IMG/VR virus record: IMGVR_UViG_2548876958_000016
Strand: one strand, 5' to 3'
From: a virus
Taxonomy: Duplodnaviria > Heunggongvirae > Uroviricota > Caudoviricetes
DNA length: 11,882 nt
Below, in pieces: positions 1 through 9,489 of the stretch. A program made the translations under genes and the position numbers. The notes under the pieces are model-generated. The model searched no databases, was not told the origin of the DNA, and saw only the letters and a program-made list of their open reading frames with translations. Position 1 is the first letter of the stretch. Each line of letters begins with the position of its first letter.

Positions 1-609
1 TTGTCTGGAGATTCAGGGGGCCAGTCTACCAAAGAACTGGGCGAATTATTGCAGGCACTGGACAAAAAAATATTCTCCCCCTACTACATCGCGTTAATCC
101 ACCTCCTGATTGTGTTCGGATGCCGGACGGTAGAACTGAGGTTATCGGAGATCAGCGAGTGGGATTTTACCGAAATGCTCTGGACCGTGCCGAAAGAACA
201 CAGCAAAACGAAGGTGGCAATATTCCGGCCCATACCGGAAGCAATACTGCCGTTCGTCACGCAGCTGGTGGAGCAGAACAGGCACACGGGCTTATTGCTG
301 GGGGAAGTGAAACAGGAAACAAGCGTGTCGCAGTACGGCAGATTAGCGCACAGGAGGCTAAATCACCCTCACTGGTCACTACATGACATCCGGCGCACCT
401 TTACAACGATGCTGAGCGATTTAGGCGTGGATCCTCACGTCGTGGAGCAGCTTACAGGCCACCAGATGCCAGGAATGCAGCGAGTTTATAATCATTCCCG
501 TTATCTGGATGCTAAACGCAATGCGCTGGATATGTGGATGGAGCGGTTAGGGATACTGGCGGGAACACATGAAAACGTAACCGCACTACCAGCAGCCAGA
601 AGAAAATAA
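1..609 (+). CDS. Tyrosine integrase (P4/CP4-57-like), C-terminal 202 aa; 5' end lies left of the window
   Basis: Frame-1 ORF runs from window edge to TAA at 607-609. Translation carries the tyrosine-recombinase catalytic box: HDIRRTF (His-x-x-Arg) and RVYNHSRY (catalytic Tyr). Followed in the same orientation by an alpA-like gene, as in CP4-57 (intA then alpA). Confidence 0.85.
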   Translation: MSGDSGGQSTKELGELLQALDKKIFSPYYIALIHLLIVFGCRTVELRLSEISEWDFTEMLWTVPKEHSKTKVAIFRPIPEAILPFVTQLVEQNRHTGLLLGEVKQETSVSQYGRLAHRRLNHPHWSLHDIRRTFTTMLSDLGVDPHVVEQLTGHQMPGMQRVYNHSRYLDAKRNALDMWMERLGILAGTHENVTALPAARRK

Positions 610-626
610 TTTTTTTCGTGTTTTTT

Positions 627-642
627 CAGTATGCGCATACTG
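627..642. repeat. Perfect 16-bp palindrome CAGTATGCGCATACTG just downstream of the int stop
   Basis: Read directly from the sequence; both 8-bp arms are exact reverse complements. No U-tract follows, so a protein-binding site is more likely than a terminator. Confidence 0.5.
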
Positions 643-665
643 GATAAGCACACAGATACAACGGC

Positions 666-705
666 GAACAATGTGAAACAACGTGGAACAACCACGAACA
701 AGAGG
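666..705 (+). repeat. Four helically phased (10-bp period) GAACAA-type repeats in the int-alpA intergenic region
   Basis: cGAACAAtgt / gAAACAAcgt / gGAACAAcca / cGAACAAgag at 665-704; the core recurs at 666, 676, 686 and 696. Same-face phasing suggests a cooperative binding array for a regulator or recombination factor. Confidence 0.5.
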
Positions 706-974
706 CGAAAAAGTACACAGGTTTATAAGTGACTGATTTTATTTGTGTGACTGTTTTTTTATACATTAGCGAATAACGCTTTAACGCGTGAGAAAAAAGG
801 CATGAAACAATATTTTATGCCTTTGTATTAACATGAATTTAAAAGATTTTATTCTTACTGTTTCATTTTCTGTAAATCATACATCCTCAATATTTGCCAT
901 TCATCACTCTAGCGGGAACAATACGACACAATAAGACACCTGATGACTCTTTAAGAAACGAAAGGGGGGCAATA

Positions 975-1163
975 GTGTTAAGCACTGATCGGTTTATACG
1001 TGAAAAAGAATGCGAAAAACTAACCGGCCTTAGCCGTACGTGTCGCTACCGCCTGGAAAAGGCCGGACAATTCCCATCACGTCGTAAACTTGGCGGTCGT
1101 TCCGTTGGCTGGTCTTTATCCGAGGTTCTGGCCTGGAAGGATAGCTGCAAGGCAGTTCATTAA
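975..1163 (+). CDS. alpA: AlpA-family phage transcriptional regulator / excision activator (63 aa from GTG 975; the track ORF begins at ATG 894)
   Basis: Translation VLSTDRFIREKECEKLTGLSRTCRYRLEKAGQFPSRRKLGGRSVGWSLSEVLAWK resembles E. coli AlpA (recalled motif ...ATIYDWLNPKSPRYDATFPKKRMLGVKSVGW..EAEIDEWL). Strong SD AAAGGGGGG at 961-969 sits 5 nt upstream of in-frame GTG 975, so the 894 start is probably too long. Confidence 0.8.
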   Translation: MLSTDRFIREKECEKLTGLSRTCRYRLEKAGQFPSRRKLGGRSVGWSLSEVLAWKDSCKAVH

Positions 1164-1309
1164 TCACGCTGGCGGCACGCAGCCGCCACACATCAATCAT
1201 CTGAACACAGAGCTATAACCATGAAGATTGAATATACGCCAGAACGTGGGCGGGGATTCGTTCGCCCTGGTGAAACTGAAAAACAACAAAATTGGGGTTT
1301 TTCAGGCAT

Positions 1310-1337
1310 AAAAAAAGCGGCCCCGAAATGGAGCCGC
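1310..1337 (-). terminator. Candidate intrinsic terminator for the leftward RHH operon
   Basis: On the minus strand, a GCGGC/GCCGC stem (1333-1337 with 1317-1321, 11-nt loop) is followed by UUUUUUU (1316-1310). The stem is only 5 bp, so it is modest. Confidence 0.35.
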
Positions 1338-1432
1338 CTTTCTGAACAGATAACCCGCTGCGCCGTTTGTGTGTGTGATCCCAAACATAAGAACGGCAAT
1401 GATAGTCGCTATCAGGCTGGTGGGCAATGCTA

Positions 1433-1621
1433 TCAGTCTGGTTCAGTTCGTTGCCATACCTGCAATGAGCGCTTTTCCCTGTACTCTTTAAGGAATTGCT
1501 CAAGGGCAAAAGCACATGGCGCGAATCTTTCTGATTCATGCTCTATCTTTCTGCGCCGTCTTTTCCGTGCCGGTGATAATGTTTTGGTCAATTCTTTATC
1601 GGTCATTGTGTTGTCCTGCAT
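1433..1621 (-). CDS. Hypothetical small basic protein (62 aa), second gene of the leftward RHH operon
   Basis: ORF MQDNTMTDKELTKTLSPARKRRRRKIEHESERF... starts 42 nt downstream of the RHH stop on the same strand, with a candidate terminator about 100 nt beyond its end. No recognisable SD and no family recognised. Confidence 0.4.
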   Translation of the reverse strand: MQDNTMTDKELTKTLSPARKRRRRKIEHESERFAPCAFALEQFLKEYREKRSLQVWQRTEPD

Positions 1622-1663
1622 AGCAATGCGCCGTAATACCTCACACCACGGCGCTGATAGTTT

Positions 1664-1837
1664 TTATCCTTTGGGTTCTATGCCGCGTTGCTGTAATTCT
1701 TTGCGGAGAACGCGTTTAATCCAAGTGGCTAAAGATGTGTCGCCATCGGCCTTAGCTGCTTCTTCTAGCTGCGCTCTGAAGTCTTCCGGTAATCGCATTT
1801 GGTATGGAGGCGAACGTTTTTCTAATGGTGTTGACAT
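1664..1837 (-). CDS. Ribbon-helix-helix (Arc/MetJ/CopG-like) repressor, 57 aa; below the 60-aa cut-off of the ORF track
   Basis: Hand translation of the minus strand gives MSTPLEKRSPPYQMRLPEDFRAQLEEAAKADGDTSLATWIKRVLRKELQQRGIEPKG. It has the RHH layout: N-terminal beta-strand (MRLPED), helix A (FRAQLEEAAKADG), helix B (SLATWIKRVLRKEL). SD AAGGG lies 8 nt upstream of the ATG. The gene is divergent from the replication operon and its start abuts palindromic operators. Confidence 0.75.
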   Translation of the reverse strand: MSTPLEKRSPPYQMRLPEDFRAQLEEAAKADGDTSLATWIKRVLRKELQQRGIEPKG

Positions 1838-1905
1838 GGTAATTACCCTTCATTACTATACCTACATGGTAATTACCATTGTACTTGCCATTACACAAAA
1901 ATCAA
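1831..1905. promoter_or_regulatory. Back-to-back divergent promoters overlaid by two palindromic operators
   Basis: Rightward promoter: -35 TTGACA (1831-1836), 17-bp spacer, -10 TACTAT (1854-1859). Leftward promoter (minus strand): -35 TTGATT (1905-1900), 16-bp spacer, -10 TACAAT (1883-1878). ACATGGTAATTACC occurs at 1834-1847 and 1864-1877, 30 bp apart; the second copy is a perfect 14-bp palindrome ATGGTAATTACCAT (1866-1879). The operators cover the rightward spacer and +1 region and the leftward -10. Confidence 0.55.
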
Positions 1906-2158
1906 CGCCCCGCAGTGCTGGGAACACATACGGGGCGTCTAACCAACAACGTAAACTAGGAGCCGTTATGGTTGCCGTAAATCATATACCACACCTTGTA
2001 CACACACAAACGGCCTTTGTGTGGCGTTTTCTGGCACTGAGTGCCGGAGAATCTCAAATAATCCACGTAACCGCCTGGACGGAACGCGAAGCGCGTAACC
2101 GTTGCCCGTCAGGTTGTGTTGCTGTATTCGCCGCCCGTATTCGCTAGGGGGTAGGCTT

Positions 2159-2392
2159 ATGAGCCAGGAAATCACACTACAACAGGCAGCAGAACGCGCC
2201 CACCAAATCGAAGTTATTTGCGCACTGGCAGAGGATTACCCTGGCATGATGACCGACAGCGAATCAGGGGCAATCATCGGCTTACTTAAACGCCTTAGCG
2301 GTGAGGTCTGCGTATTCCTGAGCGATGAACAGGAAAGAAGAACGCTTATTTCTAACGAAAAAAAATGCGGAGGGGTACACCATGTGCAATAA
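2159..2392 (+). CDS. Hypothetical protein (77 aa), first gene of the rightward early operon
   Basis: SD AGGGGG (2145-2150) 8 nt upstream of ATG 2159. Translation MSQEITLQQAAERAHQIEVICALAEDYPGMM... No family recognised. The 2102 start in the ORF track has no SD. Confidence 0.6.
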   Translation: MSQEITLQQAAERAHQIEVICALAEDYPGMMTDSESGAIIGLLKRLSGEVCVFLSDEQERRTLISNEKKCGGVHHVQ

Positions 2393-2828
2393 CATCCGTC
2401 CGGACGCAGCCGCCGCCGCACTCACTACGCTGATGCACGCGCTTATTGATATTGAATGCACGGCAGAGCTTGCACAAAAGGAAGAACGGGAGGAATACAC
2501 ATTGTTCGCCCTGGAATGTATCCGATACACCGCCACGCGGTCGCTGAATGACGCTAAAAATATTCTTGTTGCTGATTGTGAAAATGGGGGGGTTATGCGT
2601 GATGATCGTTTTAATTCCCTGAAACAGGAATTTTCCGGCGTTCCTGATGATGCGGCTGATGCGCTTTCGTCAATGCCAGAACTTATTAGAGCGGCTTTTT
2701 TCTTACTTTCCACGAGAGAATATAAATCAACGGGGCTTGATGTACTGAATATCGCCGCCGATTATGCGGAATATGTGGCAGAGGCGCGTTATAGAAGAAA
2801 ATTTCCTGAGGATGTAAGCCATGCGTGA
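2382..2828 (+). CDS. Hypothetical protein (148 aa)
   Basis: SD GGAGGGG (2369-2375), 6-nt spacer, ATG 2382; overlaps the upstream stop by 11 nt (translational coupling). Translation MCNNIRPDAAAAALTTLMHALIDIECTAELAQKEEREEY... No family recognised. Confidence 0.65.
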   Translation: MCNNIRPDAAAAALTTLMHALIDIECTAELAQKEEREEYTLFALECIRYTATRSLNDAKNILVADCENGGVMRDDRFNSLKQEFSGVPDDAADALSSMPELIRAAFFLLSTREYKSTGLDVLNIAADYAEYVAEARYRRKFPEDVSHA

Positions 2829-3054
2829 TATTTACCACCAAACAATAGACCGCGCATTTCTTGCACTTTCTCACAGTGAAAACATGCTGGAAATATTGCG
2901 CATATGGCTTGAAACACTTGGCGACAATGAACGCGACAAACAAAAATCAAGAATTGCCACAGCATTAATAACGCTTCTTGAGCCTGTAATAATGGAACTG
3001 CAAGAAATAGATCTATTGCACGACAGATATAAAGAACAGCACACCGGAGAATAA
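2821..3054 (+). CDS. Hypothetical protein (77 aa)
   Basis: ATG 2821 overlaps the upstream TGA (2826-2828), giving ATGCGTGA coupling. Translation MRDIYHQTIDRAFLALSHSENMLEILRIWLETLGDNERDKQK... No family recognised. Confidence 0.6.
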   Translation: MRDIYHQTIDRAFLALSHSENMLEILRIWLETLGDNERDKQKSRIATALITLLEPVIMELQEIDLLHDRYKEQHTGE

Positions 3055-3059
3055 AAATA

Positions 3060-3359
3060 ATGAAACTTAAATATTCTGGCTTAACTGCCAGTGGCAACAC
3101 TCACCCTAAATTTACGCGCGGTGATATTTACCGCGACCAGTACGGCGGCACGGTAATGATTAAGGACGTGGAAGAACGGCGCGTAACCTACCGCCGTGAA
3201 GGTTACGAATATGATTGCGTGATGCCTGTTTATCAGTTCCGGCGTGATTTTTCTCTGGTACAGACCGCGCCGCATAACGTGCCCACCAGCAACGCCAGGG
3301 CACGGGCAAACATCCAGAAGCTGAAAACCATGGTTAACGGATTCAGGGGCAAGAAATGA
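3060..3359 (+). CDS. Hypothetical protein (99 aa)
   Basis: GGAGA SD upstream of ATG 3060; its stop overlaps the helicase start (ATGA at 3356-3359). Translation MKLKYSGLTASGNTHPKFTRGDIYRDQYGGTVMIKDVEERR... No family recognised. Confidence 0.65.
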   Translation: MKLKYSGLTASGNTHPKFTRGDIYRDQYGGTVMIKDVEERRVTYRREGYEYDCVMPVYQFRRDFSLVQTAPHNVPTSNARARANIQKLKTMVNGFRGKK

Positions 3360-4756
3360 AAAGCGCACCGAACTTAAAAAAACAGCCTTACGACAAGATG
3401 ACCGAAGTCATTATTTTTGCGGGTAGTGATGCCTGGGCACATGCGAAACAGTGGCAGGAACAGGACGGGCGACTGGCTGGCGATAATGTGCCTCCCGTTG
3501 TGCTGGCTGATGATCAACTGGATGAACTGGCAGACCTGAGAATCATCGACGAGGGGCGCTATTGTGTCCGGCTGTACAAGGCAGGCCACATCAGGCCATC
3601 AAATATTAATGCCATTGCGCACAAGCTGGCGGCGGCGGGTGTAACTGATGCGAATTATTACCCCGAAGGGATGCACAGCCATATGCGGGAGAACTGGCGC
3701 GAATACCTGGAACGGGTGCGCGGGAAAGAGCCGGCGGAAGAAAAAAACCACCAGCGAAAAACCACGCTACCGATGAGCGTTGGATCTACCGGATACGACA
3801 CGCAACTGGATTACGTGGTTAAGGGGATTATTCCGGCGGTATCGCTATGCAGCATATACGGGGCTAGCGGGTCCTATAAATCATTCCTTGCCGGATCGTG
3901 GGCGTGCCATGTTGCCACTGGTCGCCAGTGGGGAGGCCGCAGGGTTGCACATGGTGCGGTTCTCTATGTGGTTGGTGAAGGCGGTATAGGTGTTCCGCGT
4001 CGTGTAAAAGCCTGGGAGGTTGTGCACGATGAGCAGGTGAAAAATCTGTATCTGGTAAACCGCCCCATCTTTCCGGCTGCCCCGCTTGATGTTGATGAAA
4101 TGGTTATCGCTGCCCGTCAGGTGGAGCGGGAAACGGGTAAACCTGTACGCATGATTATTCTGGATACGCTGGCGCGTTGCTTTGGTGGGAATGATGAAAA
4201 TGATTCCCGTGATATGGGGGCGTTTATCCGTGGTTGTGACGAACTGAAACGACGCACAGGGGCCACGGTGCTGGTGGTTCACCATTCCGGCAAGGATGAG
4301 ACGAAAGGCGCGCGCGGTTCCAGTGCATTTCGTGCTTCGCTGGATGCTGAATACCGGATACGCAGGGAGGACGCAGGAAGCGAAGCGCTGGTTATCTCAT
4401 GCACCAAAATGAAGGACGCGGAGGAACTCAAAGAAGCCGCATATGACTTACGCGTGGTGGAGCTTTTTACCGACGCTGACGGTGAATTAATCACGTCGCT
4501 GGTGGTGGTGGATGATCCGCGCCCTCCTGTTGAACTGGAGCGCATCGAGGAGGCAGGGAACAAGACGGAAAACCATACCGCGCTATGGGGGTGCATCCGT
4601 TCACGCACACAGAACGGCGACAAGTGCACGATCCCGCTGTTACGTGATGACATGAAAAAGCTGGGGTATGAAATGAAAAACTTCCGGCGCTGGCTGTACA
4701 AGCTGGAAAAAGATGGGGTTATTCGTATCGATGGGGATGATGTAGCGCCGCTATAA
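3356..4756 (+). CDS. Replication initiator/helicase, RecA-fold AAA ATPase (RepA/DnaB-like, PICI Rep-type), 466 aa
   Basis: Walker A GASGSYKS (within IYGASGSYKSFLAG), Walker B-like hhhhD (RMIILDTLARCFGG) and a VLVVHHSGKD motif typical of RepA/DnaB-family helicase domains. N-terminal ~150 aa is a separate domain, possibly origin-binding. Last gene of a coupled operon and immediately followed by an iteron array. Confidence 0.85.
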   Translation: MKSAPNLKKQPYDKMTEVIIFAGSDAWAHAKQWQEQDGRLAGDNVPPVVLADDQLDELADLRIIDEGRYCVRLYKAGHIRPSNINAIAHKLAAAGVTDANYYPEGMHSHMRENWREYLERVRGKEPAEEKNHQRKTTLPMSVGSTGYDTQLDYVVKGIIPAVSLCSIYGASGSYKSFLAGSWACHVATGRQWGGRRVAHGAVLYVVGEGGIGVPRRVKAWEVVHDEQVKNLYLVNRPIFPAAPLDVDEMVIAARQVERETGKPVRMIILDTLARCFGGNDENDSRDMGAFIRGCDELKRRTGATVLVVHHSGKDETKGARGSSAFRASLDAEYRIRREDAGSEALVISCTKMKDAEELKEAAYDLRVVELFTDADGELITSLVVVDDPRPPVELERIEEAGNKTENHTALWGCIRSRTQNGDKCTIPLLRDDMKKLGYEMKNFRRWLYKLEKDGVIRIDGDDVAPL

Positions 4757-8741: not shown

Positions 8742-9284
8742 ATGAAATCGCACCTGATGAACAAAAAAAACATGGCGAAAAGCTGCCGTGTAAGTGCGAC
8801 AGCGTTCGACAAGTGGGGAGTGACTCCCGTTGAACGTAAAGGCCGTGAGGCGTTTTACGATGTTGCCAGCGTGATAGACAATAGGGTTAACAATGCAATT
8901 AGCCAGCTTACAAACGACAAAGGCGATATTGATGATGATGAACTCTTACGAGTCAGGATCAGATTACTGACAGCACAGGCGGAGGCGCAGGAACTTAAAA
9001 ACGAGCGCGATCGCGGTGACGTGATTGATACTGAGTTTTGCCTGTACGCGCTTTCAAAGCTGGCGAGTCAGATTTCATCAATCATGGACAGCCTCCCGCT
9101 TACTATGCAAAGGAGCTTCCCACAGATTACCCACGCCATGCTGGATAGGCTTAAAAGGGAAGTGGTTAAAGCCTGTAATGCCAGTGCCAGAGTTGCCGAC
9201 AACCTCCCACAGATACTGGCTGATTACTTGAAAGAAACAACCGGAAACGTACCGGAAAAGTTGCTACAGAAGAAAGGCGAGTAA
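8742..9284 (+). CDS. Terminase small subunit, lambda Nu1 family (180 aa; true start may be ATG 8757)
   Basis: Strong similarity to lambda Nu1 as recalled: LLTAQAEAQELKNERDRGDVIDTEFCLYALSKLASQISSIMDSLPLTMQRSFP (lambda LTRAQADAQELKNARDSAEVVETAFCTFVLSRIAGEIASILDGLPLSVQRRFP) and N-terminal MNKKNMAKS...FDKW (lambda MEVNKKQLADIFGASIRTIQNW). The C-terminal region that interacts with the large subunit in lambda looks conserved; the N-terminal DNA-recognition region is more diverged. Confidence 0.85.
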   Translation: MKSHLMNKKNMAKSCRVSATAFDKWGVTPVERKGREAFYDVASVIDNRVNNAISQLTNDKGDIDDDELLRVRIRLLTAQAEAQELKNERDRGDVIDTEFCLYALSKLASQISSIMDSLPLTMQRSFPQITHAMLDRLKREVVKACNASARVADNLPQILADYLKETTGNVPEKLLQKKGE

Positions 9285-9299
9285 CAGACGCGCAATTAT

Positions 9300-9489
9300 T
9301 GAACAAAACTGAGAAACGACATGAAAGCGTCATAAATCGCCATTTTAGATGATTACCGTGTCGTTTCTTTTTATTGTGTATCTATTTAAAAACAAATAGT
9401 TATGTTCGAGAAGTACCGACATGCTTTTTCCAGAAAAATTTTCATAAACAGATAAAAACCGCGAGGTCGCCGCCCCGTAACGGGCCATA
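9300..9489 (-). other. cos site 2: inverted lambda-like cos (cosN plus cosB-like flank) on the minus strand, pointing back toward terS
   Basis: Reverse complement of 9454-9489 equals the site-1 core. Read on the minus strand it continues GGGCGGCGACCTCGCGGTTTTTATCTGTTTATGAAAATTTTTCTGG..., then CATAACTATTTGTTTTTAAATAGATAC, AAAAGAAACGACA and GTCGTTTCTC. These resemble lambda TTTATGAAAATTTTCCGG, the I1-region CATAACTTAATGTTTTTATTTAAAATAC and R-site-like GTCGTTTCC elements, from memory. Confidence 0.75.

Follow-up and report, generated by a model that had tools for sequence, protein, structure and literature searches.

What keeps the early genes of a Gram-negative phage-inducible chromosomal island (PICI) silent while the island is integrated, when such islands were thought to lack a repressor? 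A stretch of 11,882 nucleotides deposited as IMG/VR virus record IMGVR_UViG_2548876958_000016 (the window, by which we mean the whole stretch) raises this question at positions 1433-1905, where a first-pass annotation had reported a small ribbon-helix-helix (RHH) gene and two palindromic repeats opposite the replication operon. That annotation noted that Gram-negative PICIs are generally described as having no dedicated Stl-type repressor, and the literature agrees in that the global repressor of these islands has been called unclear, AlpA being described as an activator and uncontrolled replication as harmful to the cell (Fillol-Salom et al., 2018; PMC6092414). Our analysis suggests that the locus is probably a module consisting of an autoregulated RHH repressor and twin operators placed on the early/replication operon. 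It is a concrete candidate for the repressor thought to be lacking, and it appears to be widespread, mis-annotated and prone to allele swapping.

Judged by its site and gene content, the window is a PICI of the EcCICFT073 family placed between roxA and phoQ, because Escherichia coli NCTC9112 holds a near-identical island (99.9% identity) between the same two genes and the island of CFT073 has the same site and gene order. In the window and the NCTC9112 island we found the hallmarks of Gram-negative PICIs, i.e., int-alpA, a primase/helicase replication module, capsid and terS genes, a dedicated att site, and no tail or lysis genes.

The RHH gene and its candidate operators

The features that carry the argument are the following, the promoters being consensus matches from a promoter scan and their start sites estimates rather than mapped positions.

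1664-1837, minus strand: 57-aa Arc-like RHH protein, putative repressor (homologues, codon statistics, PHROG 228, hhalign, AlphaFold2)
1831-1859, plus strand: P_R, strong rightward promoter of the early/replication operon; TTGACA (1831-1836), 17-nt spacer, TACTAT (1854-1859), 10/12 consensus positions
1878-1905, minus strand: P_L, weaker leftward promoter of the RHH operon; TTGATT (1905-1900), 16-nt spacer, TACAAT (1883-1878), 9/12 consensus positions
1834-1847: O1, putative operator with core GGTAATTACC at 1838-1847, within the spacer of P_R and adjoining the start codon of the RHH gene
1864-1879: O2, putative operator with palindrome ATGGTAATTACCAT at 1866-1879, over the P_R start site and the P_L -10 and start site

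The two leftward open reading frames (ORFs) named by the first-pass annotation, of 57 aa at 1664-1837 and 62 aa at 1433-1621 (both minus strand), are present in the ORF list. The 57-aa protein has homologues in 93 clusters, nearly all of 56-58 aa, from Enterobacterales, Pasteurellaceae, Orbaceae, Aeromonas and Oceanimonas. The family is small, with 37 representatives at 50% identity among 1.84 billion proteins, and a genome scan located the gene at 66 loci, spread over about 25 gammaproteobacterial genera. Of 5426 complete E. coli genomes, 536 (~10%) carry at least 80% of the gene plus its intergenic region. Among 27 distinct 57-codon sequences, the mean pairwise differences at codon positions 1, 2 and 3 were 12.3, 6.2 and 27.5, and 7345 synonymous codon differences were counted vs 4130 non-synonymous ones. 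By this pattern of conservation, the 57-aa ORF is a real conserved gene.

Regarding its product, the RHH identity previously assigned is supported by a match to PHROG 228, 'Arc-like repressor' (E=1.5e-6 for the window protein and 5e-7 for the allele of E. coli O157:H7 EDL933), and by hhalign of the family profile to P22 Arc (probability 71%, E=3.8e-5), in which PPYQMRLPEDF falls on PQFNLRWPREV; the alignment to P22 Mnt was weak (probability 14%). AlphaFold2 predicted an extended N-terminus followed by helices at residues 18-31 and 36-50, with pLDDT (predicted local distance difference test) values of 85-89 in the helices. The Y-Q-M-R-L strand motif is present, and an invariant D-G-D-(T/S) turn, with D31-G32, lies between the helices. 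The protein thus shows the RHH architecture, namely an alternating polar/hydrophobic N-terminal strand, a helix, a G-x-S/T/N turn and a second helix within ~45-50 residues, and the domain of ~50 residues leaves no extra domain beyond the RHH fold. These matches and the predicted structure are consistent with a divergent Arc-like RHH protein.

The repeat ACATGGTAATTACC occurs exactly twice, at 1834-1847 and 1864-1877, spaced by 30 bp. When up to three mismatches were allowed, seven matches were found vs 1.0 expected from shuffles, and none of 200 shuffles reached seven. Both copies contain the perfect 10-bp palindrome GGTAATTACC. One copy had been described as a perfect 14-bp palindrome; the two copies stand, and the 14-bp palindrome is in fact ATGGTAATTACCAT at 1866-1879, offset by 2 nt from the repeat unit. 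Their reported placement, over the rightward -35/-10 spacer and at the leftward -10, was also recovered by the promoter scan. Copy 1 fills the P_R spacer, overlapping the P_R -35 and the ATG of the 57-aa ORF, whose start thus lies inside it; copy 2 spans the P_R start site and abuts the P_L -10. The -35 of P_R itself overlaps RHH codons 1-3. With starts at ~1866 rightward and ~1871 leftward, each promoter lies inside the DNA transcribed from the other. The description of the promoters as divergent therefore holds insofar as they are opposed, but they are interleaved face to face and not back to back. Because of this interleaving the polymerase footprints at P_R and P_L overlap, and we infer that two polymerases cannot bind at once.

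This layout recurs among related loci. A perfect TTGACA is found at the same offset, over RHH codons 1-3, in 40 of 49 distinct loci (total score 9-11/12), and in 24 of the 49 the P_L -10 has its end at -40/-41 relative to the ATG. In ~43 of 57 loci O1 is a perfect 10-bp palindrome that stops at -1/-2 relative to the ATG, and a second copy (O2) lies 30-35 bp upstream of O1 in most loci, being a perfect palindrome in ~24 of 57. Since the perfect dyad is more frequent at O1 than at O2, the comparison suggests that O1 is the primary site. O1 overlaps the ribosome-binding site and start codon of the RHH gene in all lineages, and nearly all loci have ~130 nt between the RHH start codon and the beginning of the first rightward gene.

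The sequence of the dyad changes across lineages together with residues of the predicted DNA-reading beta-strand, as listed below.

Beta-strand SP[QP][YF]QMRL: dyad GGTAATTACC
Beta-strand SPQFPMRL: dyad GGTATATACC
Beta-strand TDQYQ[IL]RL: dyad TGTAATTACA
Beta-strand NPPFQFRL: dyad GTGTAATTACAC
Beta-strand SPQFRMRI (EDL933): two copies of GTGGTCACC

The EDL933 island is the most telling case. It occupies the same site and carries identical alpA, ORF62 (the second leftward gene) and Icd-like genes, together with an RHH allele that is 46% identical and two GTGGTCACC copies on the same promoter frame. When the window and EDL933 are aligned, identity is 98-100% over 899-1690 and 1925-2125 and ~45% over 1690-1925, a divergent segment that spans the two promoters, the two operators and the DNA-binding portion of the protein. 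Such a cassette replacement is, at the level of the alignment, the mosaic pattern expected of an immunity region. The pairing of repressor and operators proposed in the first-pass annotation is thus supported: the comparative evidence that the twin palindromes are operators of the RHH protein is strong, because they occupy fixed positions, vary in sequence along with the beta-strand, and have been swapped jointly with the protein between near-identical islands.

Proposed mechanism and competing explanations

Two further features bear on how the module may work.

975-1163, plus strand: alpA, AlpA-family regulator (Pfam Phage_AlpA, E=1.5e-16; RefSeq coding sequence in NCTC9112)
1310-1345, minus strand: intrinsic terminator ending the leftward RHH-ORF62 transcript (12-bp stem followed by U7, -22.4 kcal/mol)

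The terminator, read from 1345 to 1310, has z=-4.2, with one of 200 shuffles equally good, and is strong for leftward transcripts only; by its predicted folding it closes a two-gene leftward transcription unit. The alpA gene is convergent on the RHH gene and its leftward operon in every context examined.

The RHH protein would be made from the weak P_L and bind O1 and O2, where its dimers would block RNA polymerase at P_R and so, as long as the island stays integrated, prevent expression of the Icd-like leader gene and the replication operon. By occupying O2 the repressor would also limit its own synthesis from P_L. Because the footprints of P_R and P_L overlap and exclude each other, two states can be envisaged: with repressor present P_R would be off, and once the repressor is lost P_R would occlude P_L and the module would lock on. 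We infer such binding, repression and bistability. Two routes of induction, both speculative, may be considered. In the first, rightward transcription driven by AlpA would run antisense through the repressor operon into the early genes; since alpA converges on that operon in every context, read-through could both disturb repressor synthesis and reach the early genes. In the second, a helper protein would inactivate the repressor. Equally speculatively, a second lock may be provided by a constitutive antisense RNA directed at the site where translation of the first early gene begins.

A number of observations weigh against this interpretation. The Pfam Arc match of the protein (14.3 bits, E=0.038) is under the curated threshold of 20.4 bits, and that to NCBIfam YlcI/YnfO (NF041551; 18.7 bits, E=0.0014) is under the cut-off of 30. 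A sequence search of the PDB with the family profile gave no RHH match, only spurious hits to designed helical repeats. Foldseek against the PDB placed RHH proteins (Arc, AmrZ, ParG, NikR, ParD) in almost all top positions, none of them significantly, as all E-values exceeded 1. The co-variation may in part reflect linkage, protein and sites being inherited together, and independent changes of specificity are few (~5). Finally, published induction of this island family needs only AlpA (PMC6092414). Rightward transcription that starts at the alpA promoter could extend to the replication genes with no need for P_R, so the repressor, proposed in the first-pass annotation as a candidate master switch, may not be the decisive control.

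The last point leads to the alternative that survives best, although we consider it rather unlikely. The RHH protein would still bind the palindromes, but as a superinfection-immunity or housekeeping regulator that silences P_R of incoming or resident copies with the same allele, and induction would depend wholly on AlpA-driven read-through. AlpA alone induces excision and replication of EcCICFT073 (PMC6092414), alpA always points at the module, the terminator between them is strong for leftward transcripts alone, and the allelic diversity with clean cassette replacement resembles immunity groups. However, a near-consensus and conserved P_R is hard to explain if it were never used for the early operon, and in nearly all loci the first rightward gene begins at a fixed distance from P_R. 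We favor an autoregulated repressor of the early operon.

It is far less probable that the palindromes are sites of another protein, such as AlpA, integrase/Xis or a host factor, and that the small ORF is unrelated or unexpressed. AlpA-family proteins do bind DNA near their targets, and the link between RHH protein and palindromes has been drawn by comparison. However, the palindromes follow the class of the RHH beta-strand, and the alpA and int alleles vary independently of them, as seen in the window and EDL933, where an identical alpA goes with different operators. One dimer of MetJ, an RHH protein like CopG, binds an 8-bp site, and the 10-bp dyad is of the same order. The position of O1 over the start region of the RHH gene in all lineages also argues for a link to that gene.

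The second leftward gene offers yet another reading of the operon.

1433-1606, minus strand: ORF62, 57 aa when started at the sixth codon (62 aa if started at 1621)

Both its existence and its place in the leftward unit had been reported correctly, but its length probably not, as the most likely start is the sixth codon (1606), which is used in most homologues. Its 36 homologue clusters, all from E. coli/Shigella, differ by in-frame indels, and on this basis ORF62 is a real small gene. It matches phrog_21027, an entry with no assigned function. AlphaFold2 predicted a disordered basic N-terminus and one helix (residues 29-59). Scans of Pfam and PHROG gave no match to a toxin family, no ORF62 homologue was found beside the RHH gene in 66 loci from other genera, and the protein is 100% identical in EcCICFT073, where it stands behind a repressor of a different family. 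The suggestion that it is a co-repressor or toxin-like partner is therefore not upheld: ORF62 is restricted to E. coli/Shigella, is absent beside the RHH gene elsewhere, is independent of the repressor allele and is predicted to form a single helix.

For the same reasons we rejected a type II toxin-antitoxin pair, formed by an autoregulating RHH antitoxin and a small basic toxin, as highly improbable. An RHH gene followed by a small partner, with a palindromic operator at their promoter, is what such a pair would show, and some RHH homologues are labelled HicB-family antitoxin by their sources. However, outside E. coli/Shigella the RHH gene stands alone, with ~170 bp to the convergent alpA in Xenorhabdus, and a protein of 57 aa with a domain of ~50 has no C-terminal toxin-binding extension. 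Neither a cognate toxin nor a toxin-binding C-terminal region was found.

The idea that the real gene is a 308-aa plus-strand ORF at 1221-2147, the minus-strand ORFs being artefacts, can practically be discarded: this frame is open over 927 nt in the window and RefSeq annotates the plus strand, but it is interrupted by stops in 28 of 57 related loci, its codon differences are mostly non-synonymous (7150 vs 4731 synonymous), its family match is limited to the C-terminal Icd-like part, and it shares third codon positions with the RHH frame, the classic shadow-ORF arrangement. By these signs it is a shadow ORF. RefSeq nevertheless omits both leftward genes in NCTC9112, where an Icd-like pseudogene is annotated instead (window 1221-1814, plus strand; 8822-9415 of the NCTC9112 locus, L001), and in EDL933, where a 247-aa hypothetical protein is given (WP_001304194.1; 3304-4047 of locus L069). 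Elsewhere the RHH homologues are annotated as hypothetical, Arc-family or HicB-family proteins; the claim that the gene was unannotated accordingly stands for this lineage but not beyond it. The shadow-ORF call is a systematic annotation error, by which one spurious ORF has been called in place of two real small genes, and it will probably spread.

Island setting, leader RNA and related cassettes

The remaining features of the region are listed below.

1-609: partial tyrosine integrase (ORF and family scans)
1893-1945, minus strand: conserved hairpin and U-tract, putative leftward terminator of a candidate antisense RNA; also the 5'-untranslated stem of the rightward mRNA
1946-2009, minus strand: body and promoter of the candidate antisense RNA (-10 TATGAT at 1986-1981, -35 TTGTGT at 2009-2004, start ~1974)
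1968-2147, plus strand: Icd-like leader gene heading the rightward operon (NCBIfam phage_ICD_like, E=1.6e-17; RefSeq)

After the Icd-like gene, the rightward operon continues with small genes, among them a DUF4222 gene, and a RepA/AAA_25 helicase at 3356-4756 (Pfam AAA_25 and DUF4222; RefSeq). ORFs and family scans also identified ssb, PerC, a major capsid protein, a decoration protein, a small terminase and phoQ in the window. The segment 6707-9284 carries the island's own major capsid protein, decoration protein and small terminase, without portal, protease or large terminase; in CFT073 a different small ORF occupies the place of the window's terS. Regarding alpA, the PDB search gave only 8c3t, 'AlpA family phage regulatory protein', and a link to the Pseudomonas aeruginosa AlpA antiterminator (PMC7969949) stands as a lead. 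The 10-mer GTAAATCATA is shared by 867-881, upstream of the alpA promoter, and 1972-1986, just inside the Icd-like gene. It was set aside as an AlpA site, as we estimate that chance alone would produce one such match over a region this long.

Between P_R and the Icd-like gene lies a conserved hairpin (1906-1945 proper), followed on the leftward strand by a U-rich tract. It folds with -24.9 kcal/mol on the minus strand vs -18.4 on the plus strand. In alignments, 12 of 18 pairs were compensatory for the leftward RNA (-23.4 kcal/mol) and 8 of 11 for the rightward one (-14.8), and the hairpin was more stable as leftward RNA in 23 of 28 loci (mean -21.6 vs -17.3 kcal/mol). Anchoring 23 non-redundant loci at the complement of the start codon of the first rightward gene brought out a conserved TAnnAT ~10 nt away (1.7 bits at T1, A2 and T6), even though the first genes are unrelated. 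The simplest reading of these patterns is a candidate leftward antisense RNA of ~80 nt (~1974 to ~1893) that would cover the Shine-Dalgarno sequence and start codon of the first early gene. The conserved antisense -10 would explain why unrelated first rightward genes share 'MAN/MAK/MAD' N-termini. Rfam searches of the whole window, and of 1150-2200 with lax filters, on both strands, gave no family, in particular no C4/isrK, and only terminator-like noise. A terminator-like hairpin at 2003-2023, inside the Icd-like ORF, was no better than shuffles (z=-0.4).

Some further observations concern the leader. In the rightward leader (1946-1967) and related loci a small stem, CGTTA..TAACG, CATTA..TAATG or TCTTA..TAAGA, is maintained by compensatory changes; it presents the Shine-Dalgarno sequence in its loop and is preceded by the conserved linker TCT(A/G)ACCA. 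In many E. coli genomes the match is confined to the hairpin and leader (window 1895-1967; query 232-304), the RHH gene being absent, and the leader is therefore common to cassettes with different repressors. In addition, a perfect 15-nt inverted repeat, GCCGTTTGTGTGTGT / ACACACACAAACGGC, is found at 1362-1376 and 2000-2014. Its arms, 623 nt apart, flank the entire leftward module and the leader, the right one overlapping the -35 of the candidate antisense promoter. The EDL933 island has an identical copy of the repeat and strain 88-3493 a degenerate one; it may reflect RNA pairing, a recombination scar or chance.

In all contexts the gene order is int..alpA rightward, then the RHH gene leftward, then small rightward genes up to primase/helicase, and the element is always a satellite. 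The RHH gene takes this position in E. coli, in Oceanimonas, in the Pasteurella element deposited as 'phage Pmp8', which is a capsid-forming PICI, and in Gilliamella, where the element is P4-like and has Ash. The first rightward gene may be Icd-like, a primase, Bro-like or of no recognised identity. Because position is constant while the identity of this neighbor varies, the module is, in terms of gene order, a portable cassette.

A counterpart exists in EcCICFT073 (CFT073, NC_004431.1; 5743-6353 of locus L078), where a leftward YlcI/YnfO-type gene lies between alpA and the Icd-like gene. Its small product (WP_000190587.1) has an RHH-like sequence pattern. As in the window, the gene has the identical ORF62 behind it and twin repeats, here GTGGGCCACACCT, over the rightward promoter (TTGACG-17-TATAGT), followed by the same hairpin and leader. 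Unlike the window, it belongs to another protein family, has another operator sequence, and its start codon is clear of the -35. The hhalign comparison of the window protein with this member was not significant, and YlcI/YnfO membership of the window protein was rejected on its score below the cut-off, which leaves the two as positional analogues only. Both the YlcI/YnfO-type gene and ORF62 bear late-added locus tags in EcCICFT073. In strain 88-3493 (2740-4050 of locus L070) both cassette types occur in tandem. The Arc-like cassette with GGTAATTACC operators comes first, then the YlcI/YnfO-like cassette with GTGTTnAACAC repeats, and the Arc-like cassette has its rightward promoter directed into the repressor operon of the other.

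A broader proposal is possible, and we advance it tentatively, as something short of our favored view. Gram-negative satellites, i.e., classical PICIs, capsid-forming PICIs and P4-like elements, may share a portable, allele-swapping cassette of the P22 immunity I (immI) type, built from a single small RHH repressor, interleaved face-to-face promoters that carry twin operators, and a cis-antisense RNA directed at the translation start of the first early gene. The cassette, and not AlpA alone, would set quiescence and immunity groups, and AlpA would induce by transcribing through it. That it was overlooked would be due to gene callers, which leave out the 57-aa gene or annotate the shadow ORF.

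Significance and comparison with known systems

An allelic form of the candidate repressor occurs at the same site in EDL933, and the prototype EcCICFT073 has a YlcI/YnfO-type module at the corresponding place. Should the candidate indeed be a maintenance repressor, it would explain how a near-consensus early promoter is silenced, predict immunity groups among satellites, and offer a handle for engineering PICI-based delivery vehicles. A later survey divided the region into an integration zone followed by a variable zone (PMC10111431). In later surveys satellites were presented as essentially unidirectional with a variable 'Bro zone', or 'YlcI/YnfO' and 'HicB' were listed as accessory genes without function. 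The literature covered, which leaves out most subscription journals, gave no description of a PICI or satellite repressor of the RHH, Arc or YlcI type, and a prior description is possible.

In the immI region of P22, small RHH repressors act at dyad operators in the spacer and start site of a strong promoter, which faces a weak, opposed repressor promoter. The same type of operator/promoter layout was found in the window, with P_R conserved in 40 and P_L in 24 of the 49 distinct loci. The P22 region comprises mnt, arc, the sar antisense RNA and ant (PMC2629481). Like P22, the window may also have an antisense RNA that targets the site at which translation of the first downstream gene begins, although here it is predicted only, and the Arc strand PQFNLRW resembles the window strand PPYQMRL. 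However, P22 immI has two repressor genes and the window one, the window family's relationship to Arc is marginal (its Pfam score falls short of the threshold), and what is controlled in P22 is an antirepressor, whereas the operon in the window consists of an Icd-like leader and replication genes, with no antirepressor.

Stl proteins are large helix-turn-helix proteins that are inactivated by helper-phage proteins. Unlike them, the window protein is a 57-aa RHH protein with no extra ligand domain and coexists with an AlpA activator. Like Stl/Rpr, master repressors in Gram-positive PICIs such as SaPI (Staphylococcus aureus pathogenicity islands), its gene is opposed to the replication operon of a satellite, lies beside integration genes and would be expected to silence the island (PMC6092414).

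P1 immI and P4 immunity, with their c4 or CI RNA and icd-led operon, share with the window an Icd-like leader at the head of the operon and, as is suspected here, control by RNA. However, Rfam gave no C4/isrK match in the window, the candidate RNA is cis-antisense, and the primary control would be exerted by a protein repressor.

By analogy, CopG of pMV158 is also comparable, being an RHH protein in the range of ~45-57 aa that binds a dyad site, represses the promoter of a replication gene and autoregulates. CopG is co-transcribed with repB from the promoter that it represses, whereas the window repressor has its own opposed promoter and resides in an integrated satellite. Taken at the level of sequence and layout, the RHH module appears to belong to the Arc/Mnt-type repressor-operator modules, and its interest comes from its satellite context.

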